From: Candidatus Microgenomates bacterium
GTDB lineage: Bacteria; Patescibacteriota; Microgenomatia; UBA8517; JACQJR01
Length of the DNA stretch: 36,534 nt
Direction: 5' to 3'
Assembly: GCA_016204995.1 (NCBI GenBank)
Contig: JACQJR010000001.1
Location: 435,132 to 471,665 of the forward strand
Positions within the stretch are counted from its first letter, which is position 1; each line of letters begins with the position of its first letter. A program made the translations under genes and the position numbers. Below the pieces are notes generated by a model. The model did not search any database, had not been told where the DNA came from, and was given only the letters and a program-made list of their open reading frames with translations. This document shows positions 3,445-36,507 of the stretch, piece by piece.

Positions 3445-4400
3445 CTCATCCTCTGCAGTCGCCAGCATGGGGTGAATTTCGGACTAAAACCGGTGTCAAA
3501 GTGGTGCGAGGTGATAACTTTCAAATTACCATTCATAAACTTCCTTTTACCTCCTGGACGATTGGCTATTTTCCTAAAGGGCCTCTACCGACTACTGAAA
3601 TGATTAGCCAACTTAAAAAAGTCGGCCGCGATAATCACTGCATTTTTATCCAGCTGGAGCCTAATGTTGAGAAAATTTCCAATTTCCAATTTCCAATTTC
3701 CAATTTGGGATTACGGCCTTCTACTAAACCTTTATTTTATCAGCATAGTTTTGTTATTGATTTAACCAAAAGTGAAGAAGAATTATTAGCCGCCATGCAT
3801 CCTAAAACCCGTTATAACATCCGCCTGGCTCAAAAACATGGCGTTAAGGTAGAAGAAAAAAGCGATGATAAGTCTTTTGCTACCTACCTCAAACTTTACT
3901 TTGAAACGGCTCAAAGACAAAAATATTTTGGCCACAGCGAAAGATTTCATAGGCTGATGTGGGAAACATTACAACCAACCGGAATTGCTCATTTACTCAT
4001 TGCTTACTACACTCCACCTTCTTCACCCATAATACATAATACAGATCCCCTAGCCCTGACAGCTTGGATGCTTTTTCATTACGGCGATACTCTTTATTAC
4101 GTTTACGGCGGTTCCAGTTCCGAGTATAAAAACGTCATGGCCAGTAATTTAGTAGCCTGGGAAGCCATCAAACTGGGTAAAAAATTAGGAGCAAAAAAAT
4201 TTGACTTGTGGGGCTCTTTAGGTCCAGATGCCGATCCCAAAAATCCCTGGTACGGCTTTCATAAATTTAAACAAGGTTATGGCGGAAAACTGGTAGAATA
4301 TATCGGCAGCTACGATTTAGTTTTAAATCCTTTTCTCTATTCTCTCTTTCATTTAATTGACAAATCCCGCTGGCTGATATTAAAAATAAAAACCTTTTAG
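3414..4400 (+). CDS. FemAB-family peptidoglycan interpeptide-bridge aminoacyltransferase-like protein
   Basis: HPLQSPAWGEFR, TRYNIRLAQKHGV, YYVYGGSS, NLVAWEAIKLGKKLGAKKFDLWG and WYGFHKFKQGYGG resemble the FemAB / lipid II glycyltransferase family. Overlaps the pcrA 3' end by 31 nt. Contains the translated heptamer array at 3674-3708. Confidence 0.8.
   Translation: MAGTTQKIRLTHPLQSPAWGEFRTKTGVKVVRGDNFQITIHKLPFTSWTIGYFPKGPLPTTEMISQLKKVGRDNHCIFIQLEPNVEKISNFQFPISNLGLRPSTKPLFYQHSFVIDLTKSEEELLAAMHPKTRYNIRLAQKHGVKVEEKSDDKSFATYLKLYFETAQRQKYFGHSERFHRLMWETLQPTGIAHLLIAYYTPPSSPIIHNTDPLALTAWMLFHYGDTLYYVYGGSSSEYKNVMASNLVAWEAIKLGKKLGAKKFDLWGSLGPDADPKNPWYGFHKFKQGYGGKLVEYIGSYDLVLNPFLYSLFHLIDKSRWLILKIKTF
3674..3708. 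repeat. Tandem heptamer array (AATTTCC x4 plus degenerate AATTTGG) inside the FemAB-family CDS
   Basis: Read directly: aatttcc aatttcc aatttcc aatttcc aatttgg. Translated as ISNFQFPISNLG. The same 30-nt core occurs at 28634-28663. Confidence 0.95.
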
Positions 4401-5021: not shown

Positions 5022-7934
5022 CTAAACTGATTTACAAAACATTTTGTACTCGCAGTTTTGGCAGAGGAAGGAGCCAGAACAGGCAAAGTCGCTTTGGGAA
5101 ATTGCGGCCGCTGTCTCCAAAATATCTTGCTTGGCTTTATCTAAATCAGCTTGAGTTCTGGTGGTAGTAAATTTTTTACCTCCTTCAAGGAAGTAAAGCG
5201 AGAGAGAAATTTCTGCCGGAGTTTTACCAAAAGGCTGTTCTTTTACTTCAGTTGCGGCCAGAGCATAAACCGTTAATTGTAAATCAGCCGCCACTTCCTT
5301 ATCAGTCGGCAAATTAGCGCCGGTTTTATAATCAATAATTTCAATACCACGGCCGATTTTGTCAACCCGGTCAATTTTACCGCCTACTTTTAAATTATTA
5401 TCTAAACGAAAAGTAAAAGGATATTCCAGTAAAATCGGCAGATGATCTACTCTAAATTCATTTTTAAAATAATGATTCAGATAAACCAATCCTTTTTCTT
5501 TCATCAGCTCTTCGCGTTTTTTAGAATCGTATCCCTCTCTCATCCAATTATCTTGATAAATTTTAACCAGTCTTTTTAAAGTCCCTTTTTCGCCTACCTT
5601 TAACAAATTATAAAAATCAGCCAAGGTTTTATGCATGGTAATACCGAAACTTTGGGCAGCCGAAGTAGGAATGGGTAAGCGCAAAATATATTTTAATTTA
5701 AAATGCAGAGGACAAACCTTAAATTCCTGAATTTGGGAATAAGAAAGGTAATTTATGACTGTTGGGGTATTGGGCTGTTGGAACGTTGGGCCAATATAGG
5801 CTGGTGCGTAGTCAAAAATAGATAATTGCTCGCCTATTGCCTGTTGCCTAATGTCTAGTGCCTTCTCCCCTAATGCTTCTACCACAAACGGCGAGATTTT
5901 TCTTTCCCTTTTGCCCTCGCCGTAAAAGCCGGCCGCAGTTAAATATAGCCGGTCGCGGGCCCTAGTCATGCCAACATAAAATAACCTTCTTTCTTCTTCC
6001 AAGTGATAATCCCCAACTGGCAACTCTTCGCGAATTAACTCCTCCGGAATGGGAATTTGTTCTTTTCGCTCATAGGTGGGAAAACGGCCAGCCACTAGAT
6101 TTACTAAAAAAACCACCGGAAATTCCAAACCTTTCGCAGAATGGGTAGTCAAAATATTAACTGCTTCGTTCTTGTCCCAATCGCTCGTCGCAGCCAGCGG
6201 CGATTCACCTAGTTCTAGAGATAACTCAATCCACTCTACCGCTGCCTCTACCGTTGCATTCCTATGCTCTGCTTCATAAGTTTTTAACTTATCAAAAAAT
6301 CTGGCCATATTTTGAGTCTTTTTTTGATTTTCTACACTTTGCTCGCTACTGGCCATTCCTGCTAACATTCCTGAATCTTCCAAAAAATAAAATAAGACCT
6401 GACCGGCTGTCGCATTTCGCTTGGCTTTCAAATGCTTGTTAAACATTTGGCAAAAAATTTTAATTTTCTCGCGGGTTTGAGGATTAACAAATATCTTATC
6501 TATTTCTTCACAAGCTTCAAACAAACATAAATTGGTTCTTTTGGCATAATTAACTATCGCGGCAATATCGCGAGCCGAAATATTAAAGTAATCCATAGAT
6601 AACACCCGATAAAAAGATAAATTATCGTCAAAATTGACCAATATTTTTAAATAGGCAATTAAATCTTTAATTTCTTCTTGCCGGAAAAGCTGTCCCGGCC
6701 CTAAAAATTGATAAGGCATACCTAAACGAGATAATGCCCGGCTAAAAGGCTCTGTTTGATTATTAGCTCGCACCAAGATACTAAAATCAGACCAGGGTCT
6801 TTTTTCACTCTTTACCAGTTCCAAAATCTTTTTAGCGACCTCGTCGGCTTCATTTTCCACCCGATCAGCATAGATAAATTCTATCTCTGATTCTTTCACT
6901 GCTCTAACTTTAGTTAAAGCCTTACTAATACCAAGCCTGGATTCTAAAGTATCCGGATCATTGTGACGAATTAACTGGTGAGCGTGATCCAAAATAGTCT
7001 GACTGGAACGGTAATTTTTATTTAAGACCACCCGGTGGGCCTTTTTGTACTCCTTCATAAATTGTAAGATATTGGAGACAGCGGCGCCACGAAATTTATA
7101 GATGGATTGGGAATCATCACCCACCACAGTCAAATTTGGTTTTTTTGAGGGAGGAGCCAGTAATTTCAGCAGTGAATATTGGCTAATATTAGTATCCTGA
7201 AATTCATCTACTAAAATATATTTGAATTGCTGCTGATATTTTTGCAAAATTGCCGGACGCTTTCGCAACACTGCTAAAGTATTGATCATTAAATCACCGA
7301 AATCCATCATCCCTTCTTTAACTTTTAATTCTTGATATTTCTGATAAGCCTTGGCTAGTTCCAAATATTTTCCTTGTTCTTCTTCCCCTTTTCGGATTTC
7401 GGATTTAGTACTTCGGATTTCCCGAGCAAATTTTAAGTATTGCTCGGGTGTGGTATCTTCATCTTGCAGCCTGGAAAAATGTTGCAATAGTCCTCCGATA
7501 AATTTAGTGGGATTACCCAAAGGCCTAAAATAAGCCAGGTCTAAAGAAAAAAGATGGCTTTTTAGTAATTGGGTGGACTCGGCCTCAGTTAACAGATGGT
7601 AATTATTAGACAAACCAATCGCCAAACTCTCGGTTTTCAAAATCCGGTCGCAAAAGGCATGAAAGGTGGAAATCCACATTTGGGTATAACCATAAGGCAT
7701 GGCAATATCTACCCGTTCCTCCATTTCCTGGCTGGCTTTTTCGGTAAAGGTGAGAGCTAAAATTTCTGCAGGTTTGGCCAATTCTTTGAGGATCAAATAT
7801 TTAATCCGCTCGGTAATAACGGTCGTTTTGCCGGTGCCAGCGCCGGCAATAATAAGCAAGGGGCCTCCTTGATAAATAATAGCCTCTTGCTGCTCCGCAT
7901 TTAACTTCAAATTAGAAGGATGGCCTTGGGGCAT
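5022..7934 (-). CDS. UvrD-family helicase fused to a C-terminal PD-(D/E)XK nuclease with a Cas4/AddB-like 4-Cys (Fe-S) signature
   Basis: N-terminal helicase motifs AGAGTGKTT, LTFTEKAS, VDEFQDTN, VVGDDSQSIYKFRGA, NYRSS, THSAKGLEFPVVF and RRLFYVGMTRAR. C-terminal nuclease motifs: FKVCPLHF, GKIDRVD, IEIIDYKTG, QLTVYALA and CQNCEYKMFC (C-x2-C-x5-C). Confidence 0.85.
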   Translation of the reverse strand: MPQGHPSNLKLNAEQQEAIIYQGGPLLIIAGAGTGKTTVITERIKYLILKELAKPAEILALTFTEKASQEMEERVDIAMPYGYTQMWISTFHAFCDRILKTESLAIGLSNNYHLLTEAESTQLLKSHLFSLDLAYFRPLGNPTKFIGGLLQHFSRLQDEDTTPEQYLKFAREIRSTKSEIRKGEEEQGKYLELAKAYQKYQELKVKEGMMDFGDLMINTLAVLRKRPAILQKYQQQFKYILVDEFQDTNISQYSLLKLLAPPSKKPNLTVVGDDSQSIYKFRGAAVSNILQFMKEYKKAHRVVLNKNYRSSQTILDHAHQLIRHNDPDTLESRLGISKALTKVRAVKESEIEFIYADRVENEADEVAKKILELVKSEKRPWSDFSILVRANNQTEPFSRALSRLGMPYQFLGPGQLFRQEEIKDLIAYLKILVNFDDNLSFYRVLSMDYFNISARDIAAIVNYAKRTNLCLFEACEEIDKIFVNPQTREKIKIFCQMFNKHLKAKRNATAGQVLFYFLEDSGMLAGMASSEQSVENQKKTQNMARFFDKLKTYEAEHRNATVEAAVEWIELSLELGESPLAATSDWDKNEAVNILTTHSAKGLEFPVVFLVNLVAGRFPTYERKEQIPIPEELIREELPVGDYHLEEERRLFYVGMTRARDRLYLTAAGFYGEGKRERKISPFVVEALGEKALDIRQQAIGEQLSIFDYAPAYIGPTFQQPNTPTVINYLSYSQIQEFKVCPLHFKLKYILRLPIPTSAAQSFGITMHKTLADFYNLLKVGEKGTLKRLVKIYQDNWMREGYDSKKREELMKEKGLVYLNHYFKNEFRVDHLPILLEYPFTFRLDNNLKVGGKIDRVDKIGRGIEIIDYKTGANLPTDKEVAADLQLTVYALAATEVKEQPFGKTPAEISLSLYFLEGGKKFTTTRTQADLDKAKQDILETAAAISQSDFACSGSFLCQNCEYKMFCKSV

Positions 7935-20575: not shown

Positions 20576-23033
<2,458 letters not shown>

Positions 23034-23036
23034 AGC

Positions 23037-23363
23037 TTACGCCGTTTTAACGGCGAGTATATCATCAAATTTCACTAACATATATTCGCGGCCCTCAACC
23101 TTAAGATCATTGCCGCCCCATTTTTTGTAATAAACAGTCTCGCCTACTTTGCAGGGTGCTGATTTTTTACCATGTTCGGTGATTTCATCATCACCAATGG
23201 CTAACACTTTTCCTAATTGGGGTTTTTCGCTGGCAGATTCAGGCAGAACAATACCGGAGGCCGTTTGCCGCATGGCTTCTTCCGGCTCCAGCAGAATATT
23301 ACCAGCTGTGGGTAAGATATTAATTTTAGGAGCAGGAGTTGCTGTAGATTTAACTTTCGGCAT
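23037..23363 (-). CDS. groES: Co-chaperonin GroES (Cpn10) with a ~14-aa N-terminal extension
   Basis: ILPTAGNILLEPEE...GIVLPESASEKPQLGKVLAIGDD...GETVYYKKWGG...EYMLVKFDDILA. Confidence 0.95.
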   Translation of the reverse strand: MPKVKSTATPAPKINILPTAGNILLEPEEAMRQTASGIVLPESASEKPQLGKVLAIGDDEITEHGKKSAPCKVGETVYYKKWGGNDLKVEGREYMLVKFDDILAVKTA

Positions 23364-26405: not shown

Positions 26406-26443
26406 AGTCTTCTCTTCATGATATCATATGGAAAGGAAACTCA

Positions 26444-26477
26444 CCTGCCCGCAATGCTAGCGTAAGCGTGGCAGGCG
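26444..26477. repeat. 34-bp GC-rich palindromic insert flanked by a 9-bp direct repeat (MITE/REP-like candidate)
   Basis: GGAAACTCA (26435-26443) | CCTGCCCGCAATGCTAGCGTAAGCGTGGCAGGCG | GGAAACTCA (26478-26486). The termini CCTGCC/GGCAGG pair perfectly. Confidence 0.6.
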
Positions 26478-26487
26478 GGAAACTCAA

Positions 26488-28239
26488 ATGTCAAAACCTA
26501 AAAAGATCAAGAAAATATTTAACTTTCTCAACAGGCAAAACCCACTGGCGGTTCTGGCGGTATTATTTCTATTGGAAGCCGTTTTTGTCGCGACTAGCTA
26601 CCATCTAATTTTTTGGAATAGAATTTATCCCAATATTATGGTAGCAAATATTAATCTTACTGGGAAAACAGAATTAGAAGCCCAAAAATTATTAGCTAGT
26701 ATCTCCCCTTCCCCAACCATCACTTTAATAACACCAGACAAACAATTTGTCCTTAAAAGTCGCGATATTGATCTGCAATACGACACCAACCAGACTGTCA
26801 GACAGGCTTTTTTAATCGGCAGAAGCGAGTCAGCCGTGTCTAATTTCACCGTTAAATGGCAAGCATTGCAGCAACCAGTCCAGCTTCCCTTTGCTTATTC
26901 CTATAATCAAGAAAGGCTGACGCAATTTTTCCAAAAAGTGAGTAACGAAATTGATATCCCCGTCATTCAAACTAGTATAGAAATTCAAAAAGGCCAGGTG
27001 ATTGTTAAATCTGGCCAGGCCGGATTGGAAGTTGACAAAGAGATTTTGGCGCAAAATGTCAAAAATGCCCTTGGCGCCGGTCAGCATAAAATCGCCATTC
27101 CTGTCAAAACCAACGCCGTTTTTTCCGCTTCTCAAATTGAAGAACTGCGTACCCGCACCCAAAATTTGGTGGGAGCAAGTCTGGCTTTCACCCAGGAAGA
27201 AAACAATGTTATTTTGTCTGACAGTGATCTGGTGAAATTTTTAGCGCCTGATCAGACTTTTAACCAGAACAAAATTAAGGAGCAGGTAGAAAAAATCGCT
27301 GCTCAATTTTACAGGCCAGTCCAAGAACCCACCTTTCGTTTTGAAAATGGTAAAGTGACAGAATTTAAGCCTGCCAAAGACGGCATAGAAGTTGACAAGG
27401 AAAAACTAATCAAGGATATTGCGACAACTATTGACACATTGACCCCGGGCCAAAAAGTTCCAATGGATATTCCGGTTACTAAAACCAAATCCAAATTAAC
27501 TACCAACCAAGTCAATAATATCGGACTTAACGAATTGATCGGCCGGGGCTGGTCTCAATTCAAAGGCTCTGCTCCGGCCCGGGTGCATAATATCGCGCTA
27601 GCTGCTTCCAAGCTTAATGGTATCTTAATCAAACCGGGAGAAGTTTTTTCTTTTAATCAGGCCCTCGGCGATGTGTCGGTTTTTACCGGCTTCCAACAAG
27701 CTTATATTATCAAAAACGGCCGGACCATCTTGGGAGACGGCGGCGGCGTTTGCCAAGTTTCTTCTACTCTTTTCCGGGCGGCTTTGGCGGCCGGCTTACC
27801 CATTATAGAACGACGGGCTCATTCTTTCCGGGTCAGCTATTATGAACAAAACTCTACGCCCGGTTTTGACGCCACAGTCTTTGATCCTTCTCCTGATTTT
27901 AAAATTAAAAACGATACCCCGGCTTATATCCTTTTGCAAGCCACAGTTGATACTAAAAATGCCAGTCTCGTCTTTGAAATATATGGCACCAGCGATGGCC
28001 GGGTCGCCACTACCAGCAAACCCAGAGTGTGGGATATTAAACCGCCACCTCCTGATTTATACCAGGATGACCCCACCTTACCCACCGGCACTGTTAAACA
28101 AGTAGAGCACCGAGTTAACGGTGCAAAGGTGGCTTTTGACTATAAAGTAATACGAGGAGGTGGGGTTTTACAAGACAAAACTTTTTATTCCACCTACCAA
28201 CCCTGGCAAGCAGTGTATTTGCGGGGCACCGCGCAGTAA
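26488..28239 (+). CDS. VanW-family protein (YoaR-like; N-terminal anchor, peptidoglycan-binding-type region and VanW domain)
   Basis: GGGVCQVSSTLFRAALAAGLPIIERRAHSFRVSYY is the VanW core. There is an N-terminal TM helix. The start ATG lies inside a CAAATGTCAAA repeat unit. Confidence 0.85.
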   Translation: MSKPKKIKKIFNFLNRQNPLAVLAVLFLLEAVFVATSYHLIFWNRIYPNIMVANINLTGKTELEAQKLLASISPSPTITLITPDKQFVLKSRDIDLQYDTNQTVRQAFLIGRSESAVSNFTVKWQALQQPVQLPFAYSYNQERLTQFFQKVSNEIDIPVIQTSIEIQKGQVIVKSGQAGLEVDKEILAQNVKNALGAGQHKIAIPVKTNAVFSASQIEELRTRTQNLVGASLAFTQEENNVILSDSDLVKFLAPDQTFNQNKIKEQVEKIAAQFYRPVQEPTFRFENGKVTEFKPAKDGIEVDKEKLIKDIATTIDTLTPGQKVPMDIPVTKTKSKLTTNQVNNIGLNELIGRGWSQFKGSAPARVHNIALAASKLNGILIKPGEVFSFNQALGDVSVFTGFQQAYIIKNGRTILGDGGGVCQVSSTLFRAALAAGLPIIERRAHSFRVSYYEQNSTPGFDATVFDPSPDFKIKNDTPAYILLQATVDTKNASLVFEIYGTSDGRVATTSKPRVWDIKPPPPDLYQDDPTLPTGTVKQVEHRVNGAKVAFDYKVIRGGGVLQDKTFYSTYQPWQAVYLRGTAQ

Positions 28240-28242
28240 ATT

Positions 28243-29325
28243 ATGACTATCCTAGCTATTGAAACCAGTTGTGACGAGACCGCGGCTTCGGTGGTGGAAG
28301 ACGGCCGGAAAGTGTTATCTCATGTTTTGGCCAGTTCGGCCGATATGCATGCTAAAACCGGTGGCATTATTCCGGAAATGGCGGCTCGCGAACAACTAAA
28401 ATCAATTTTACCAGTTATTGAAGAGGCTTTAAAAAAGGCTTTTCCTTCTCAAGCTTCTAATCTCCAATATCTAAGCTCTAACCTTGATGTCCTCGCTGTC
28501 ACTGCCGGCCCAGGACTTATCGGCTCATTATTAGTCGGAGTTGAGACTGCTAAAACCCTCGCCTGGTTATGGAATAAACCCTTAATACCAGTCAATCATC
28601 TTGTAGGCCATATATACGCGAATTTCATTCGCGAATTTCCAATTTCCAATTTCCAATTTCCAAATGAAGAACCAAAATTCCCAGCGCTGGCTCTAGTTGT
28701 CTCTGGCGGACATACTGATTTAGTTTTGATGGAAAACCACCAAAAAATTACCTGGATCGGCGGGACTCGCGATGATGCGGCTGGTGAAGCTTTTGATAAG
28801 ACGGCCAGACTTTTGGGACTTCCCTATCCGGGTGGGCCAGCCATTGCGGCTGAAGCCGCCAAATTTGAAGCACAAAATCCGAAATCTGAAAAACTACAAA
28901 TGTTTCCTAGACCTTTGATTAATGAGAACTATTTTGATTGGAGTTTTTCCGGATTGAAAACTGCCGTAGCCCGGGAAGTTAGCAAAAATAAAAAGTTAAC
29001 TGGTGAAGATTTGCAAAAATTTTCTGCCGAAATTCAACAAGCCATTGTTGACTCACTGGTGATCAAAACTATGAGGGCTGTCAAAAAGTTTAAACCCAAA
29101 TCATTGCTGTTGGGTGGAGGTGTGGCAGCAAATTCTCGCTTGCGCGAAGAATTTAATTCTAAAATCCAAGATCTAACATCTAAGATCTCTTTACATGTTC
29201 CTCCTCCTAAATTCTGCACCGATAACGCCAGTATGATTGGCGCTGCCGCCTTTTATAATTACCAACCAGTTAACTGGAGAAAAATTCAAACCCTTCCCGA
29301 ATTAACAATTACTGGAGAGATATAA
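28243..29325 (+). CDS. tsaD: tRNA N6-adenosine threonylcarbamoyltransferase TsaD (Kae1/YgjD family)
   Basis: ILAIETSCDETAASVV, HLVGHIYANF, LVVSGGHTDL, DDAAGEAFDKTARLLGLPYPGGP and GGGVAANSRLR. Confidence 0.95.
   Translation: MTILAIETSCDETAASVVEDGRKVLSHVLASSADMHAKTGGIIPEMAAREQLKSILPVIEEALKKAFPSQASNLQYLSSNLDVLAVTAGPGLIGSLLVGVETAKTLAWLWNKPLIPVNHLVGHIYANFIREFPISNFQFPNEEPKFPALALVVSGGHTDLVLMENHQKITWIGGTRDDAAGEAFDKTARLLGLPYPGGPAIAAEAAKFEAQNPKSEKLQMFPRPLINENYFDWSFSGLKTAVAREVSKNKKLTGEDLQKFSAEIQQAIVDSLVIKTMRAVKKFKPKSLLLGGGVAANSRLREEFNSKIQDLTSKISLHVPPPKFCTDNASMIGAAAFYNYQPVNWRKIQTLPELTITGEI
28634..28663. repeat. Tandem heptamer array (AATTTCC x4) inside tsaD
   Basis: aatttcc aatttcc aatttcc aatttcc aa. 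Translated as EFPISNFQFP. The 30-nt core is identical to that at 3674-3703. Confidence 0.95.
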
Positions 29326-29989: not shown

Positions 29990-32041
29990 ATGGAGAAAAC
30001 TTACCAATCAAGCCTGCACGAAGAAAAAATCTATTCGCTGTGGGAAACGGGAAACTACTTTAGGCCTATAGAAAAATCTACCGAACCTAAAAAAACATTT
30101 GTAATGATGATGCCCCCACCGAATGTTACTGGAGCACTCCATATCGGACACGCTCTTACTGCCGCAACTGAAGACATTTTAGTCCGTTTCCATCGCATGC
30201 TTGGAGAGACAACTTTATGGTTACCGGGTGTGGACCATGCCGGTATTGCCACCCAAAATGTGGTAGAGCGCGCCCTAGCCAAAGATGGTAAAAATAGAAT
30301 TGATTTAGGTCGGGAAAAATTCGTAGAAGAAGTTTGGCAATGGGTAGAAAAATATGGCCACACCATTGATGATCAACATAAAAAATTAGGAGTTAGCGCC
30401 GACTGGTCACGCCGCCGTTTTACCATGGACGAGGACTATCAACAAGCAGTTCAAATCGCTTTTAATACTTTAAAAGAAAAGGGTCTGATTTATCAGGGAG
30501 AATATATTGTTAACTGGTGTCCTCGTTGTGCCAGCGCCATTTCTGATTTAGAAAATATTTACGAGGAACAAAACGGCAAATTATATTTTTTAGATTACGG
30601 CCTTATTACTATTGCTACTACCCGGCCGGAGACAATTTTTGCCGATAGTGCTATTGCCGTTAATCCCAAAGACAGTCGCTATCAAAAGCTGGTTGGCAAG
30701 TTCGCCGCGATCCCTTTAATAAACAAAGAAATTCCCATTATCTCCGACATGGCAGTTGACCAAAATTTTGGTACTGGCGCTTTAAAAGTCACCCCAGCCC
30801 ATGACCAAACTGATTTTGAAATTGGCCGTCGTCATAATTTACCGCGCCCATCTGTAATTGATAAAAACGGTAAAATGGCAAGTTCTAATTTAGTACCCCA
30901 AAAATATTGGGGCATGGAGGTGCAAGTTGCCCGAGACGGGGTGGCCAAAGACTTGCAAAATTCTGGCCTGTTGAAAAAAGAAGAAAGCCATCAAAATAAT
31001 GTCGGCCATTGCCAACGTTGCGACACTATTACCCAACCATTACTTTCTCTCCAATGGTTTGTTAAAACCACGGCCATGGCCCGAGCTGCCATAGAGGCAG
31101 TTAAAAAAGGCGAGATTAAAATTATCCCCAAAAGGTTTGAAAAAGTTTACTTCCAGTGGCTTGAAAATATTCATGACTGGTGCATTTCCCGCCAAATCTG
31201 GTGGGGCCACTCTATTCCAGACAGCAATGACGTCTTAGACACTTGGTTCTCTTCTTCCCTCTGGCCCTTTGCCACTTTAGGCTGGCCGAAACAGACAGCA
31301 AATTTGCAGAGATTTTTTCCTACCACAGTTTTAGAAACCGGTTATGATATTCTCTTTTTCTGGGTGGCCAAGATGATTATGATGAGTACTTCCTTGACCG
31401 GTAAACCACCTTTTGAAACGGTTTATCTGCATGGATTGGTCCGTGATATTCAGGGACGGAAGATGAGTAAAACTCTCGGTAACGTGATTGATCCCCTGGA
31501 ATATATTGGCAAATATGGCACGGATAGCTTACGGATGGCCTTAGTGGTGGGCACAACGGCCGGCAATGACAGTAAAATTTCCGAGGAAAAAGTTGTCGGT
31601 TACCGCAATTTCACCAACAAGGTTTGGAACATAGCCAGATTCATTTTGTCATATGAATCTGGAACTCAAATGTCAAATGTCAAAACTCAAAACGAAGATG
31701 ATAAGTGGATTAGGGATGAATTAGTCAAAACTATTAAATCTGTTACTCGCCATCTTCACAACTTCCGCCTCTCCCCGGCCGGCGAAGAAATTTATGATTT
31801 CATCTGGAAAAAGTTGGCTGATATTTATTTAGAAAAAACTAAAAGCCGGCGCCAAGAAGCTCAACCTACTTTACTTTATGTTCTAGATCGCAGCCTACGT
31901 CTTCTTCATCCTTTTATGCCATTTGTTACCGAAGTTATCTGGCAAACTGCCCGCGAGACCAAACGACTGTCTGCGCAGGCAGGCTTGACGCCCGGCACTT
32001 TCCAAGAGGAAGCCCTGATTACTGCCCAATGGCCAAGATAG
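29990..32041 (+). CDS. valS: Valyl-tRNA synthetase, compact form (683 aa)
   Basis: PPPNVTGALHIGHAL (HIGH motif), TTRPETIFADSAIAVNP and KVTPAHDQTDFEIG (CP1 editing domain), DVLDTWFSS and RKMSKTLGNVIDP (KMSKS motif). Confidence 0.93.
   Translation: MEKTYQSSLHEEKIYSLWETGNYFRPIEKSTEPKKTFVMMMPPPNVTGALHIGHALTAATEDILVRFHRMLGETTLWLPGVDHAGIATQNVVERALAKDGKNRIDLGREKFVEEVWQWVEKYGHTIDDQHKKLGVSADWSRRRFTMDEDYQQAVQIAFNTLKEKGLIYQGEYIVNWCPRCASAISDLENIYEEQNGKLYFLDYGLITIATTRPETIFADSAIAVNPKDSRYQKLVGKFAAIPLINKEIPIISDMAVDQNFGTGALKVTPAHDQTDFEIGRRHNLPRPSVIDKNGKMASSNLVPQKYWGMEVQVARDGVAKDLQNSGLLKKEESHQNNVGHCQRCDTITQPLLSLQWFVKTTAMARAAIEAVKKGEIKIIPKRFEKVYFQWLENIHDWCISRQIWWGHSIPDSNDVLDTWFSSSLWPFATLGWPKQTANLQRFFPTTVLETGYDILFFWVAKMIMMSTSLTGKPPFETVYLHGLVRDIQGRKMSKTLGNVIDPLEYIGKYGTDSLRMALVVGTTAGNDSKISEEKVVGYRNFTNKVWNIARFILSYESGTQMSNVKTQNEDDKWIRDELVKTIKSVTRHLHNFRLSPAGEEIYDFIWKKLADIYLEKTKSRRQEAQPTLLYVLDRSLRLLHPFMPFVTEVIWQTARETKRLSAQAGLTPGTFQEEALITAQWPR
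31661..31695. repeat. Heptamer array (GGAACTC AAATGTC AAATGTC AAAACTC AAAACGA) inside valS
   Basis: Read directly. Translated as GTQMSNVKTQNE. It shares the string ACTCAAATGTCAAA with 26482-26495 and, on the opposite strand, the repeat at 33625-33692. Confidence 0.9.
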
Positions 32042-32376
32042 AAAAAGTTCAGAGTTCGGAGTTAGGAGTTCAGAGAATAAATCTGTTGTGGTGGACCGTG
32101 AGTTTTATAGTGGTGCTTATCTCGCTGGCCAACCTTTCTATCTGGGCCAGAAATGAGTTAGCTAAAAAGGCCAGAATTCCCATAGAAGTAGAAATTAGTA
32201 AGTGGGAACAAGTTGTCCAAAAAACCCCCACTTACCGCGACAGTTATTTAAAACTGGCTATTCTTTATTGGCAATTACAGGAAGATCAGAAATCTCAAGT
32301 GGCTCTAGCTATTGCTGAAAATCTGGACCCTAATTACGAAGAAACTGGAGAAATTAAGAGGCTTTTAGGCTACTAG
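32029..32376 (+). CDS. Small membrane-anchored TPR-like protein (hypothetical)
   Basis: TM helix (LLWWTVSFIVVLISLANLSIW) followed by a TPR-like segment YRDSYLKLAILYWQLQEDQKSQVALAIAENLDPNY. The first ~16 codons are repeat-derived, so the start is uncertain. Confidence 0.5.
   Translation: MAKIEKVQSSELGVQRINLLWWTVSFIVVLISLANLSIWARNELAKKARIPIEVEISKWEQVVQKTPTYRDSYLKLAILYWQLQEDQKSQVALAIAENLDPNYEETGEIKRLLGY
32047..32074. repeat. Heptamer array GTTCAGA GTTCGGA GTTAGGA GTTCAGA
   Basis: Read directly. Begins 6 nt after the valS stop codon. Translated as VQSSELGVQR in the next ORF. Confidence 0.9.
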
Positions 32377-33068
32377 GCTTTTTTCTTCTCTTCCTCTATG
32401 GTTGGTTTTTCTTCCGTTGCCGGAGTTTCTCCACCTTCGGCCGGTACTTCGCCCTCTACTGCTTCACCTTCAGCCGGGGCTGGCGGAGCCACTTCTTCCT
32501 CTTTGGCTGGCGGTTCAATCTTGGCCACAATTTGTTCTCCCTCTGTTACTACCGTTACTTTATCCTTCGCGACCATCAAATCGCTTACATAAATCGCCTC
32601 ATCTACGTTTTCCAGTTTACTAACATCTACCAATAATTTTTCTGGCAAATCGGTCGGCAAAGCCTCCACTTCCACTTCATTAGTTTGCTGCACGAGAATT
32701 CCTATGCCGGATTTTTCAGCGGGGGCTTCGCCAGTTAACTCCACAGGAACCGTGGCGGTAATTTTTTCTGTTAAATCAACCTGGCGGAAATCAGCATGAA
32801 TGGGCAAATCAGTAACTGGGTGCAGTTGAACATTAACTATTAAAACTGGTTTGGTTTCTTCATCAACTTGTAAATCTATCAAACCCGTCTCCCCTGCTTT
32901 TTCATAAACTGCCTGGAATTCTTTTAAGGGTAATTCTAAAGCTTGAGAAGTTATTTTTTTGCCATAAACATTAGCCGGCATAATACCGTCACGACGAAGA
33001 GCGCGCACTTTTCTACCTTCTAGGGTTCGTTTTTTGGCTGCTAATTTTACTCTGTCTGTACTTGCCAT
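32373..33068 (-). CDS. rplY: 50S ribosomal protein L25 / general stress protein Ctc form
   Basis: KLAAKKRTLEGRKVRALRRDGIMPANVYGK and a two-domain length, with an acidic/Pro-rich C-terminal tail. Confidence 0.9.
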   Translation of the reverse strand: MASTDRVKLAAKKRTLEGRKVRALRRDGIMPANVYGKKITSQALELPLKEFQAVYEKAGETGLIDLQVDEETKPVLIVNVQLHPVTDLPIHADFRQVDLTEKITATVPVELTGEAPAEKSGIGILVQQTNEVEVEALPTDLPEKLLVDVSKLENVDEAIYVSDLMVAKDKVTVVTEGEQIVAKIEPPAKEEEVAPPAPAEGEAVEGEVPAEGGETPATEEKPTIEEEKKKA

Positions 33069-35830
33069 ATTGCTGAAAACTGCACATCACTGCGCAATAG
33101 GGTATTGTACCCCACAGCATTACTCTCCGTCAAGGAAGAAGGGGGAAACAAGGTAACTCTGAAATTGTCGGGATAGCGAATCTTCAAGGTGACGGGATCC
33201 TCCACCACCCCATATTGTTTTTGCCATAAGAAGACTAAACTACCCCGATCAGTCATTTGGAGAGAGTTTTGCCAAGATATCAACAGTTGCCTAGTTTCCC
33301 CTGCCGGCACGAGAATTAACATTCCGGCCACATTCTTGCCATGCTCCTGGCTGAAATCAGGCGCTAAATTGACACTCTGACCGTTGGCGGGATTGACTAA
33401 ACTGGCCGATATGACAGCAGACGAAAGTGGACTATACAGCCGCAGATAGTTTTTGTAACCCAAATCAATTTTGCCTTTAGGGTTTTGGTTAACGTAGGAG
33501 ATGGTCAAATTATGCAGCAACTTATCCGAATTTAGCGACAATTCCAGTTGAGCGCTACGGGATAAACCAAAATTCGCTTTATTCACTCCCACATTCGCTT
33601 CTGCGATAAAAAGATAGTCCTCCTGACATTTGACATTTGACATTTGACCTGCCTGCCTTGCCTGCGCAAGCGGGGCAGGCAGGCATTTGACATCCCTTAG
33701 TCCCCCATCCCAACCTAATTCAGCAAGAATCGCTTGTTGCTTACGGTTATTAAGATAAATAGATAGATGGCGGCCAGCCAGATTATCCATGATTACCTTC
33801 CCTATGGAAACTATCTTCGTTTGGCTCGTCTTTAATCTGTCTATTAAAATGCGGGTTGTCGCAGTTAAAAAATCACGCTTGCGGGTGGATCCCGGAAAAA
33901 ATTCTTCCTGGGCAAAAAATTGGGTTTTTTCATAAAAATTACTTTCATTAATTTTAGTATTGAAATCAGCTATATCTAATGACCCAACAATTCCTATTAG
34001 TTTTTTAACTGTTTCTAGATCCAAAGCCACTACCCCATCCACCTGTTGGTTTAATTCCTTATCCAAAAACCAGGCGGCCCGTTGGCCAGTCGTGGGAAAA
34101 TCAGGATCCCAATTAGAATCACGCAAATACCAGTTGGCTTCTCCCAGGTGAGTTTTTAAGGCGGGCGGCGGCTCCACATGTCCTGAAAGATGACCATCGG
34201 CTTCGTAAACATCTTGAATATCAATATTAATTAACTTACCATGATCTATGGTCAATAAACCAATTGATCCAATAAAACCGCCCGTAGGCCGCAACTCCAT
34301 ATTATTTTGCAAAAGCAATAAATATTGCCTTTTACCTTTAAAGCCTAACAAATCAGGCGTTTCTTTGACCAGGGTGGTTAGTTTGGTGATAGTGGTAAAA
34401 TCCACCGGGAAGTTCTGTCGCAAAAAGTCATTCTTCTCGGCGGCCGAGAGACTTAAATCGCGGCTTAATGAATCTACTTCTAGTACAAAACTATTAACAA
34501 TCTGCTCTTCTGTTCCACTATCGCCGCCGATCACACCAGTAAAAATTTTCTGTCCCAGACCGGCAATCTTAGCTCCCCTGACTGCTATATCTGCCACCTC
34601 CTCTAAAGAACGAACCTGATTTCTCGCCGGCAGAAGGCTTTCCCCCATTCCCGGAATTATCATTAAATTACCCAAACTACTATCTGCCACTACCAAGGAT
34701 TGCTTGCTAAAATTCGCCCAGCGGCTAGCCTCATTAAAATTCCCGGCGGCAAAAGACTTCTTGGCCATCGCGAGCATCACTCCCCCACCGGTAAAAGATA
34801 AAAATGGTAAGCCGATAAACCAGAAGAATATTAATATCAACCCCAGCCAGATAGCCCATTTCCAGCCTTTAGGGATTGGCTTGTGGCTTGCCTTGCCGGC
34901 AGACAAGTCTTTAGTCTTTGGTCGTTGGCTTTTAGTTTCTCTAATTTTGGGAGTTATTTTGGAAACATTTTCGCGAAAGTATTGCAAGGTTTGACTAATG
35001 CCTAAAACCAGAGGGGTATGAACCGGCAATAATTCACCACCCCAAGACTCATCCGCGTCTGAAAAAGAATGGCTACCAATCCCCTGCTGGCTCACACTTC
35101 TAACCGTGTCGTAAAAAACAGAAATGCTTATTTCGCGCACAGCAAAGGAGAAGGTTTTACCACGACTGTTAGGCGAAAACATGGCCAGTATTATGCCACT
35201 TACTGCATCATCTAAAAATAAAGGCAAAACCTTTTGGTGTCCTGCTGCATAAGCAAGAGGTGAAGATAAAAGTGTCTGGTGAATAATGTTTCCCAGGGGA
35301 TCATCCAAAAACAAAGGCATGGTTGGACCGTATAAGTTTCCTAATTCCACCAACCGGACATCTACCTGTCTATTCTTGCCATATTCTAAAACAAAAGTTT
35401 TATAGAATTGGTTAACTTCGCGAAGCTTCTCCGATTTATTTTGCTCACTACTGGCAAATAAAAATTTAGCGTGGGCCTGGTCAGCAATTTCCAAAAGGCG
35501 CTCAATTACTTTATGTTGTTCTTGCAGCAGCAAAAAATATAAATCTGCTGTTTCCGGTCCCACTCTTTCCAAATAAAAAATATAATTCGGTAGGGGTAGG
35601 TTAGTCGGAAAGTTTTGGGCGAGATCCTGCTCTAGAATATTTAGATTTTTATCTTGCAGGGGTAATAAATTTTCTTTAATCCCCACTTGCCAATTATCAA
35701 TGGCAATAATTTTTGCTCCTTTTTTTAATAAATTTCGGCAAAGATCTGCCCCCAAAAAAGAGGCAGCATTAACTACCCAAATTACTGGATGATGATGCTC
35801 GCTAATTAAACTGCCCAAACCTTTGGCCAT
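33047..35830 (-). CDS. Fusion protein: degenerate NAD-epimerase/dehydratase-like Rossmann domain, TM helix and extracytoplasmic DUF4012 domain
   Basis: The N-terminal VIWVVNAASFLGADLCRNLLKKGAKIIAIDN corresponds to the VTGGAGFIGSHL region, and LGNLYGP is also present. TM helix WAIWLGLILIFFWFIGLPFLSF. LLLLQNNMELRPTGGFIGSIGLL...DVYEADG is DUF4012-like. Confidence 0.75.
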   Translation of the reverse strand: MAKGLGSLISEHHHPVIWVVNAASFLGADLCRNLLKKGAKIIAIDNWQVGIKENLLPLQDKNLNILEQDLAQNFPTNLPLPNYIFYLERVGPETADLYFLLLQEQHKVIERLLEIADQAHAKFLFASSEQNKSEKLREVNQFYKTFVLEYGKNRQVDVRLVELGNLYGPTMPLFLDDPLGNIIHQTLLSSPLAYAAGHQKVLPLFLDDAVSGIILAMFSPNSRGKTFSFAVREISISVFYDTVRSVSQQGIGSHSFSDADESWGGELLPVHTPLVLGISQTLQYFRENVSKITPKIRETKSQRPKTKDLSAGKASHKPIPKGWKWAIWLGLILIFFWFIGLPFLSFTGGGVMLAMAKKSFAAGNFNEASRWANFSKQSLVVADSSLGNLMIIPGMGESLLPARNQVRSLEEVADIAVRGAKIAGLGQKIFTGVIGGDSGTEEQIVNSFVLEVDSLSRDLSLSAAEKNDFLRQNFPVDFTTITKLTTLVKETPDLLGFKGKRQYLLLLQNNMELRPTGGFIGSIGLLTIDHGKLINIDIQDVYEADGHLSGHVEPPPALKTHLGEANWYLRDSNWDPDFPTTGQRAAWFLDKELNQQVDGVVALDLETVKKLIGIVGSLDIADFNTKINESNFYEKTQFFAQEEFFPGSTRKRDFLTATTRILIDRLKTSQTKIVSIGKVIMDNLAGRHLSIYLNNRKQQAILAELGWDGGLRDVKCLPAPLAQARQAGQMSNVKCQEDYLFIAEANVGVNKANFGLSRSAQLELSLNSDKLLHNLTISYVNQNPKGKIDLGYKNYLRLYSPLSSAVISASLVNPANGQSVNLAPDFSQEHGKNVAGMLILVPAGETRQLLISWQNSLQMTDRGSLVFLWQKQYGVVEDPVTLKIRYPDNFRVTLFPPSSLTESNAVGYNTLLRSDVQFSAIWQVQTE
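33625..33692. repeat. GACATTT x3 heptamers plus a 36-bp GC-rich palindrome flanked by CATTTGA(C) direct repeats, read through in frame
   Basis: gacattt gacattt gacattt ga | CCTGCCTGCC ttgcctgcgcaagcgg GGCAGGCAGG | catttgaca. The outer stem is a 10-bp perfect match. The minus-strand translation is DVKC-LPAPLAQARQAG-QMSNVKCQ. Confidence 0.9.
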
Positions 35831-36443: not shown

Positions 36444-36507
36444 CAATCCTAACAATAGAATTGTTAGGATTGCAATTTCTAATTTCAAATTTCTAATTTC
36501 TAATAAA
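36444..36507. repeat. Perfect 13-bp inverted repeat followed by an AATTTCT-type heptamer array
   Basis: CAATCCTAACAAT-AGA-ATTGTTAGGATTG (36444-36472), then caatttc taatttc aaatttc taatttc taataaa (36473-36507). Confidence 0.9.

Follow-up and report, generated by a model that had tools for sequence, protein, structure and literature searches.

How does a GC-rich palindrome of 36 nt come to lie in frame inside a gene? The question is raised by a stretch of 36,534 nt from a Candidatus Microgenomates bacterium (assembly GCA_016204995.1, contig JACQJR010000001.1, positions 435,132 to 471,665 of the forward strand), which we call the window as a whole. Its DUF4012 gene contains the palindrome CCTGCCTGCC-TTGCCTGCGCAAGCGG-GGCAGGCAGG (copy A; all coordinates in Table 1), which an initial annotation had described as a 36-bp GC-rich palindrome with a perfect 10-bp outer stem, read in frame, and the sequence is exactly as described there. 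With 27 G or C at 36 positions (75%), it stands out from a window background of about 41%, and the plus-strand hairpin has a predicted folding energy of -32.8 kcal/mol (z = -4.2). The pattern CCTGCC-N10-30-GGCAGG is observed at two loci of the window, with 0.03 expected, and chance is excluded as the source of this arm pattern. On the coding (minus) strand, the reading across copy A is DVKC-LPAPLAQARQAG-QMSNVKC-QED, where copy A alone encodes LPAPLAQARQAG, residues 716-727 of the 927-aa protein, between C715 and C734. As set out below, we consider it probable that copy A is a member of a family of selfish or neutral ultra-short hairpins that are copied in trans and are kept in genes only in frame and at tolerant sites.

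On the plus strand, (GACATTT)x3 followed by GA lies directly before copy A and CATTTGACA directly after it, and CATTTGAC is found on both sides (33641-33648 and 33684-33691). The origin of this arrangement was examined among homologues. The DUF4012 part, used as query in an exhaustive HMMER search, returned thousands of these, the best 150 of which were aligned, and 80 further DUF4012 loci from metagenomes were compared at the same place. In the best 150 homologues, the site corresponds to a loop between two conserved cysteines, mostly of the form C-x2-3-C (such as CSGNC). In some of the proteins, the loop contains a duplication of 7 residues (NVKCQMSNVKC, VNCQLSVVSC), which is the product of three heptanucleotide units, and only the window protein (P0001), P0002 and perhaps P0121 have 12-13 extra residues of the form LPA...QAG. 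The nearest relatives of the window protein, P0004 (50.6% identity) and P0005 (48.8%), lack the insert, and the closest relative found (L128, 59% identity) also has an empty site. Judged from this alignment, copy A with its peptide LPAPLAQARQAG is a lineage-specific insertion between the two cysteines, and it was inserted recently.

Filled and empty sites can be compared directly at the nucleotide level. Between two genes with 90% identical proteins, those of L001 and L125, a clean indel of 39 nt is seen, with flanks that are about 88% identical (an alignment estimate) and with four heptamer units in each. Likewise, the window sequence at this site, minus its 36-nt core, equals the (TCAAATG)4 arrays of L126, L129 and L143, and the empty sites of L126, L129 and L143 have 4 to 4.9 uninterrupted units. 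No target-site duplication was seen in the three filled/empty comparisons. As the number of heptamer units is the same in empty sites, the flanking direct repeats are array units and not a target-site duplication. The CATTTGA repeats of the initial annotation are thus present on both sides of copy A, as claimed, but they belong to a (TCAAATG)4 array that was there before the insertion. A 7-bp target-site duplication, considered in view of the 43-nt spacing of the flanking repeats at both window copies, was rejected for this reason, and also because no more than about 16% of family copies have matching 7-nt flanks. These copies sit in arrays, and the value for controls is 3%.

That the insert is an ordinary conserved coding segment, palindromic by chance, or an assembly or sequencing artefact, is hardly credible in the light of these comparisons. 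P0002, which is 44% identical to the window protein, does have a similar peptide, LPAVATQQALQAG, at the same place, as an ordinary segment would. However, this peptide is missing from P0006, which is 90% identical to P0002, and from nearly all homologues, and the arm pattern has the low chance expectation given above. Moreover, LPAVATQQALQAG is encoded by a different member of the same DNA family, so that P0002 does not provide the homologous segment from non-palindromic DNA that the initial annotation had envisaged for a distant orthologue. An artefact is contradicted by the identical DUF4012 gene sequence that an independent assembly of a public sequencing run contains (L002, Logan), and by the origin of the copies from NCBI, JGI, ENA and Logan data, with point-mutation divergence along orthologue lineages. 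A single ancient insertion common to P0001 and P0002 was also rejected, as the two belong to different sub-clades in the tree and by identity, each with empty-site sisters, and as their copies differ in length, subtype and orientation.

The cysteine loop was in fact hit repeatedly. GC palindromes of 15-39 nt, each with a length divisible by 3, entered it independently at least five times in different lineages: the 36-nt copy of the window (antisense), a 39-nt copy in L001 (sense), a 21-nt mini-palindrome CCTGCCTGCC-G-GGCAGGCAGG in the L136/L137 clade (peptide LPAGQAG), a palindrome of about 30 nt in the L138 clade (CCCGCC...GGCGGG), and one of about 15 nt in L151/L153 (CCCGCCAGCTGGCGG). The mini-palindrome is located at AAA^TGTC of the fourth unit, which is another array position than that of the window copy. 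Further inserts in the loop, again multiples of three in length, were seen in L127 and L184. The L127 gene (GCA_964525065.1, 5776-8559) has a different 24-nt insert, CCCCATTCGGCAAGCTCAGGGCAA..., with the peptide PHSASSGQ, at the same position of the TCAAATG array, and this insert may be a decayed copy. Decay after insertion is evident in the L137-L135 series, in which the insert diverges by 38% and the coding flanks by 13%, or by 14% and 2.3%, respectively. As the insert diverges faster than its flanks, the hairpin is not under purifying selection in this series, and from these divergence values it would be without host function at the DUF4012 locus.

In an AlphaFold2 model of the DUF4012 protein, which presumably also has a membrane helix, judged by reading of its sequence, the mean pLDDT is 85.8, and nowhere in the C-terminal domain is the confidence lower than in the block 721-730, with a pLDDT of 58. 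The insert takes the form of a short helix (718-726) in this model, preceded by a helix (696-705) and followed by a strand (734-746). This low confidence fits a tolerant surface loop, in line with the loop position that the initial annotation had proposed to examine by prediction.

Copy A is not alone in the window. A second, intergenic copy (copy B) had been assigned initially to 26444-26477; it is real but better delimited as 36 nt. Copy B matches copy A at 28 of 36 positions and is clearly recognised by a hidden Markov model (HMM) of the family (37.4 bits, E=2.7e-9). With copy A, the same HMM gives a weak match on the plus strand only (11 bits, E=0.47), and the plus strand of copy A is identical to an L006-type family member at 28 of 36 positions. 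As the plus strand fits the family better, copy A is probably oriented antisense to its host gene. The ATG of gene 26488-28239 lies 8 nt downstream of copy B, and TCAAATGTCAAA, which follows copy B, occurs five times at three loci of the window, with 0.5 expected. The tract TCAAATGTCAAA at 26484-26495 contains the ATG start of this gene (MSKPKK...), which places the array and the hairpin within its translation-initiation region.

To delimit the family, one genome per species (GTDB) was scanned with the pattern CCTGCCYGC-N6-20-AAGCGNNGCAGGCRGG, in which 23 bases are specified. At least 119 loci match this strict pattern, as compared with about one match expected by chance (an estimate for uniform composition). 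Family members are 18-45 nt long, usually 36 nt, and share the ends CCYGCCYGC...GCRGGCRGG around an interior that forms a small variable hairpin. A looser search also identified the ends as the constant part, and versions of 18-21 nt that consist of arms only do occur. There are three end types, namely a T/C hybrid, which is the commonest and is represented by copy B, the T/T type of copy A, and a C/C type. Most of the matches listed come from metagenome-assembled genomes (MAGs) labelled as Patescibacteria of the candidate phyla radiation (CPR), among them Saccharibacteria, Microgenomates, and the Gottesman-, Levy-, Nomura-, Portnoy- and Staskawicz- lineages, and further labels among these matches are Komeili-, Moranii-, Nealson-, Berkel- and Woese-, Collierbacteria, and others. 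One 36-mer, CCTGCCCGCATTGCTACGCAAAGCGTTGCAGGCGGG, occurs 23 times among the matches listed, always with unrelated flanks, in lineages labelled Gottesman-, Levy-, Nealson-, Moranii-, Saccharibacteria, and others. In addition, a nearly invariant 33-nt subfamily, CCTGCCTGCGCCAAGCGAAGCGCGGCAGGCAGG, is found mainly in high-GC phyla (Verrucomicrobiota, Methylomirabilota, Latescibacterota, Desulfobacterales), in high-GC MAGs at L003, L020, L063, L064, L113 and L116, often at the tip of a longer flanking inverted repeat. Given this subfamily, the family may not be confined to CPR. Phage-borne spread was rejected, as 2.9 million viral contigs contain three matches.

The hairpin family is apparently undescribed so far. 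No description was found in the full-text literature, including searches with exact DNA and peptide strings, although subscription journals were mostly outside this search and a prior description is possible; a recent review of Patescibacteria biology does not describe it either. Rfam gave no match for the window and nine loci at the gathering score, and only a 13-bit chance match at a permissive setting, so that a known RNA family was rejected as the identity of the element. As a correction to the initial annotation, the element is not peculiar to this genome and is spread over many CPR lineages.

About half of the copies are inside long ORFs, and these are clearly distinguished by their length. 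In a comparison that covers low-GC loci, 31 of 31 copies inside open reading frames (ORFs) were divisible by 3 (33, 36 or 39 nt), as compared with 35 of 49 copies in surroundings of intergenic type (Fisher p = 0.0006). Copies of 37 and 38 nt were found only outside genes, and none of the 31 genic copies contains a stop codon. Genic copies are thus under selection for frame, and the kept frame together with the missing stops is a signature of translation and not of excision. The initial annotation had suggested a genome-wide search for further copies and their frame; many copies do exist, and every one inside a coding region is divisible by 3. The orientation is biased as well, with 27 sense and 4 antisense genic copies, and the dominant frames, two of the three sense frames, give PARIATQSVAGG-like (17) and LPALLRKALQAG-like (9) peptides. 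The family consensus has no stop in five of the six frames. The positions in proteins can be seen at L007, where copies encode residues 16-27 of S9 (the N-terminal tail before the domain), residues 243-254 of RpoA (the linker between the N-terminal and C-terminal domains), and residues 8-19 of S11 (the N-terminal tail). At L044 (986-2580), a gene for an ABC ATPase (Pfam ABC_tran), which by reading of its sequence we take to be UvrA-like, contains at least six copies, some of them in tandem (HNVAGGPARNATHNVAGG...). This region is broken by runs of N, which suggests that assemblers struggle with these repeats.

If the element were cut out of the RNA, like a mini-intron or a processed insert, its in-frame reading would be irrelevant. 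One locus is in agreement with this idea: at L086 (1861-1896), removal of the 36-nt element restores a tRNA-Arg(CCG) gene across the junction, a few bases 3' of the anticodon and thus near the classical position of tRNA introns. However, L086 is a single short contig of low coverage, in which the insert is either a disruption of the tRNA or tolerated or processed, and the frame statistics, the absence of stops and the restriction of 37- and 38-nt copies to non-genic DNA all argue for translation. A length of 36 nt is also far too small for a self-splicing intron. Excision therefore appears very improbable, and a tRNA intron was rejected as the identity of the element in view of the frame statistics, the one interrupted tRNA-Arg being the case in its favour.

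The main rival is a functional cis element that is kept by the cell as a site for a CPR-conserved factor acting on RNA or DNA, for example in mRNA stability or processing, in recombination, in segregation, or as a DNA-uptake signal, with the genic copies being tolerated by-products or regulators. It is suggested by the identity of the 36-mer in CPR lineages that are distant at the phylum level, and by covariation in its fold. In 39-mers, helix X (11-15/19-23) is paired in 88%, double changes are seen at all five pairs, and the observed score is not attained in any of 500 shuffles, whereas in 36-mers 55% of the cells of helix X are paired, which is no better than shuffles. Helix Y (GCTACGC/GCGTTGC) overlaps helix X and is supported in both 36-mers and 39-mers; its 16:26 pair is AU in 16, UA in 5 and GC in 1 case, and a T.T mismatch is conserved. 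Helices X and Y cannot form together, and a single simple hairpin was rejected as the conserved structure. The strong sense bias in genes and the location of several copies beside tRNA genes would also agree with a cis element. However, the positions are not conserved, with empty sites in 90%- and 59%-identical orthologues, and the locations in linkers, N-terminal tails and intergenic DNA are arbitrary. The fast decay in the L137-L135 series and the negative Rfam search point in the same direction, and the sense and frame bias can be explained by the encoded peptides, since a stop occurs in one antisense frame and the other frames are Cys- and Arg-rich. Taken together, the cross-lineage identity and covariation keep a site for a conserved host factor in consideration, and the non-conserved positions and the decay weaken it to a degree that we regard it as unlikely.

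The second repeat type at this locus is the heptanucleotide array. Four perfect arrays of period 7 with a length of at least 18 nt are present in the window, as opposed to none with periods 5, 6 or 8-12 and none in shuffles. Heptanucleotide arrays, with about 4.3-4.7 units each, are in striking excess there. A stretch of 716 kb of low-GC CPR loci contains 29 perfect arrays with period 7 that reach at least 21 nt, as compared with 0-3 for any of the other periods between 4 and 12. About 3-5 units per array are typical, and arrays are also found inside genes, such as a FemAB-like gene, the DUF4012 gene and the essential ValRS gene (TCAAATG), and an AATTTCC x4.3 array is in a gene that we take, by reading of its sequence, to be tsaD, which is likewise essential. 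The same heptamers recur: AATTTCC is found at window positions 3674 and 28634, CAATTTC at L107 4064, the reverse complement GAAATTG at L127 3008 and 3753, AATTTCT at window position 36474 and in L108, and AACTCAA at window position 31663 and at L108 6390. As unrelated loci and different genomes are involved, simple duplication of whatever sequence is present locally does not account for the arrays. Units 3-4 are identical within each gene, CCAACTG x2 in L001 and TCAGTTG x2 in L125; being alike within and different between 90%-identical genes, they indicate ongoing homogenisation or turnover with the length being kept. All insertions in the DUF4012 loop are within an array, and family copies in general are moderately enriched beside arrays. 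The arrays may be preferred targets or products of the same machinery.

This association could also mean that the palindromes are generated locally, like the arrays themselves, by error-prone replication or repair (template switching, quasi-palindrome correction, slippage), with a sequence bias leading to GC-rich arms. The many palindrome sizes in the DUF4012 loop (15, 21, 30, 36 and 39 nt), their position inside dynamic arrays with differently homogenised units, and the period-7 excess would all agree with such an origin. However, template switching copies neighbouring sequence, and yet the arms or the whole 36-mer are identical at more than 100 unrelated loci in AT-rich surroundings, and about 80% of the copies have no adjoining array. 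We therefore give this explanation little credence.

The reading that we prefer, a hairpin family copied in trans, would account for copy A in the following way. A copy would have inserted in the window lineage between the first and second unit of the pre-existing TCAAATG array, which encodes the loop between the two conserved cysteines, and no target DNA would have been duplicated. As 12 codons without a stop, it would be read through by the ribosome and add 12 residues to a poorly ordered loop. The copies would be made in trans, most plausibly by a machinery that recognises the folded single-stranded hairpin. Selection would then remove genic copies that break the frame, introduce a stop or disturb the fold, so that survivors in genes would be confined to tolerant loops, linkers and tails. 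Mobility in the sense of a transposon, and the existence of an enzyme behind the movement, are what we infer from this pattern.

Several observations weigh against this reading. No transposase or other candidate enzyme was found in the window, where Pfam annotation of most of the large ORFs gave housekeeping genes only. There is neither a target-site duplication nor a clear target motif, and the flank logo of family copies contains no conserved motif or tetranucleotide except that position -1 is almost never T (3/91). The copy number per genome may be modest: 454 kb of DUF4012 loci chosen regardless of the element contain nine relaxed matches, read as about five independent loci, with about 0.1 in shuffles, and 4-5 copies within 8 kb are seen at some loci labelled Saccharibacteria. 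Some matches have non-CPR labels (Gammaproteobacteria, Bdellovibrionales and others), the labels being taken as given. Finally, very distant lineages share an identical consensus 36-mer, and there are two overlapping helices with compensatory changes; functional constraint explains both facts no less well than a purely selfish repeat does.

Among known systems, the behaviour of the family is, by analogy, closest to that of the Rickettsia palindromic elements (RPEs), as the initial annotation had proposed, and its idea of in-frame survival inside an ORF gains support from the insertion, frame and loop evidence. Like RPEs, the family consists of palindromic repeats that are inserted in ORFs, in frame and translated, in tolerant segments, with presence or absence between orthologues. 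RPEs are about 100-150 bp long, restricted to Rickettsia, not GC-rich relative to the genome, and located in tolerant surface segments. In contrast, the elements described here have 18-45, typically 36 nt and, as copy A, 75% GC in genomes of about 40% GC; they are hosted by CPR/Patescibacteria MAGs, nearly invariant across many CPR lineages, and often located in heptanucleotide arrays. Membership in the RPE families is ruled out by size alone, and no sequence similarity to RPEs is known to us.

Repetitive extragenic palindromes (REPs) and their pairs (REPINs) resemble the family in being imperfect palindromes of 20-40 nt with conserved mismatches, without target-site duplication, and presumably recognised as folded single strands. 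REPs are extragenic by definition, have a species-specific sequence and a 5' foot of the GTAG type, and occur in hundreds of copies next to the gene of a REP-associated tyrosine transposase (RAYT, of the Y1 HUH type). The family differs in that about half of its copies are inside long ORFs, that its sequence is common to phylum-level lineages, and that its copy number seems low. The flank logo has no GTAG/GTGG tetranucleotide at the 5' foot, CTAC/GTAG being found only in the apical loop of some variants, and no RAYT gene is present among the annotated window proteins. The GC clusters of yeast mitochondria and the PstI palindromes of Neurospora mitochondria are GC-rich palindromes of about 18-50 nt in an AT-rich genome, regarded as mobile and occasionally in frame inside a coding gene (var1). 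They share the scattering of short GC-rich palindromes through an AT-rich genome but are organellar and eukaryotic, with other sequences and no known link to heptamer arrays, and the GC clusters show short target duplications.

Miniature inverted-repeat transposable elements (MITEs) such as Correia/NEMIS are also non-autonomous, with terminal inverted repeats, and lie in or near genes; the family has the inverted ends CCYGCCYGC/GCRGGCRGG. MITEs have 50-500 bp, make target-site duplications and derive from identifiable insertion sequences (IS), in contrast to the short hairpins studied here, which make no duplication and have no known parent IS. Palindrome-associated transposable elements (PATEs) derived from IS200/IS605 insert without duplication, 3' of a fixed tetra- or pentanucleotide. 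Duplication is absent here as well, and no fixed target was seen, only the depletion of T at position -1. Other candidates were rejected: a CRISPR repeat, as there is one copy per locus or an irregular placement; an intrinsic terminator, as no T run follows copy A or copy B and T is not enriched 3' of family copies; and attC or a parS-like operator, as arrangement, flanks or genic positions do not fit.

Table 1. Copies, arrays and host gene in the window, and the heptamer array at filled and empty DUF4012 sites of other loci.
Feature	Position	Strand	Description
Copy A, GC-rich palindromic element	33648..33683	+	symmetric T/T-type ends CCTGCCTGCC...GGCAGGCAGG; minus-strand peptide LPAPLAQARQAG
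Three TCAAATG units, 3' of copy A on the coding strand	33625..33647	-	encode QMSNVKC; TRF period 7, 3.6 copies, 100% matches
One TCAAATG unit, 5' of copy A on the coding strand	33684..33692	-	member of the pre-existing four-unit array
Host gene, intact 927-aa ORF	33047..35830	-	Pfam DUF4012 and epimerase-like N-terminal domain
Copy B, 36 nt, CCTGCCCGCAATGCTAGCGTAAGCGTGGCAGGCGGG	26444..26479	+	hybrid-type ends CCTGCCCGC...GCAGGCGGG, commonest type of the family; intergenic
Heptamer-like units around copy B	26435..26495	+	AAACTCA, core, AAACTCA AATGTCA AAA
Related heptamer array in the ValRS gene	31663..31693	+	AACTCAA/ATGTCAA units, peptide QMSNVKTQ; no palindrome, array without core
Possible degenerate copy at the 3' end of the ValRS gene	31946..31983	+	ACTGCCCGC...GCGCAGGCAGG; one arm mismatch; no match to the family HMM
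Heptanucleotide arrays of the window	3674-3706, 5832-5863, 7390-7421, 22975-23039, 28634-28663, 29158-29188, 31663-31693, 32046-32075, 33624-33648, 36474-36504		
L001 site, filled, 39 nt			GTCAACTG[CCTGCCCGCAGTAGCTACGCAACAAGCGTTGCAGGCGGG]TCAACTG CCAACTG CCAACTG
L125 site, empty			GTCAACTG TCAACTG TCAGTTG TCAGTTG
L126 site, empty			(TCAAATG)(TCAAATT)(TCAAATG)(TCAAATG)
L129 and L143 sites, empty			perfect AAATGTC x4.9

Some further arrays deserve mention as side aspects. Near the window end (36444-36504), a perfect 13-bp AT-rich hairpin, CAATCCTAACAAT-AGA-ATTGTTAGGATTG, is followed by AATTTCT x4.4 upstream of an RNase H gene and forms another pairing of a hairpin with a heptamer array. At 22975-23039, an imperfect palindrome of 25 nt is formed by two heptamer arrays in inverted orientation, AAATCCT x4.4 and GTTTAGA x4.7, where only a short gap separates the Pfam Cpn60 (GroEL-type) and Cpn10 (GroES-type) genes. 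A TTAGGGC x8.6 array, with a telomere-like heptamer, is present at L073 (1350-1409) in a MAG labelled Gammaproteobacteria.

As a tentative wider proposal, Patescibacteria, and perhaps other phyla via the 33-nt subfamily, might possess a hitherto unrecognised class of ultra-short GC hairpins that insert without target duplication by a new or unassigned mechanism based on the single-stranded hairpin. The same machinery might make or target the heptanucleotide arrays peculiar to such genomes, and the two processes could steadily extend even essential proteins, RpoA, S9, S11, ValRS and TsaD among them, by segments of 7-13 residues in loops, linkers and tails. In-frame selfish palindromes have so far been a curiosity of Rickettsia and fungal mitochondria, and a smaller, GC-rich and almost invariant counterpart across CPR suggests that the phenomenon is general in reduced, AT-rich genomes. 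It also gives a lead to the mechanism, as the element must be recognised by something that is conserved in CPR bacteria. Insertions and heptamer arrays account for odd low-complexity inserts of CPR proteins; they can lead alignments, phylogenies and structure prediction astray, and they serve as markers of recent strain divergence. They also constitute a route by which new loop and linker sequence is added to essential proteins.

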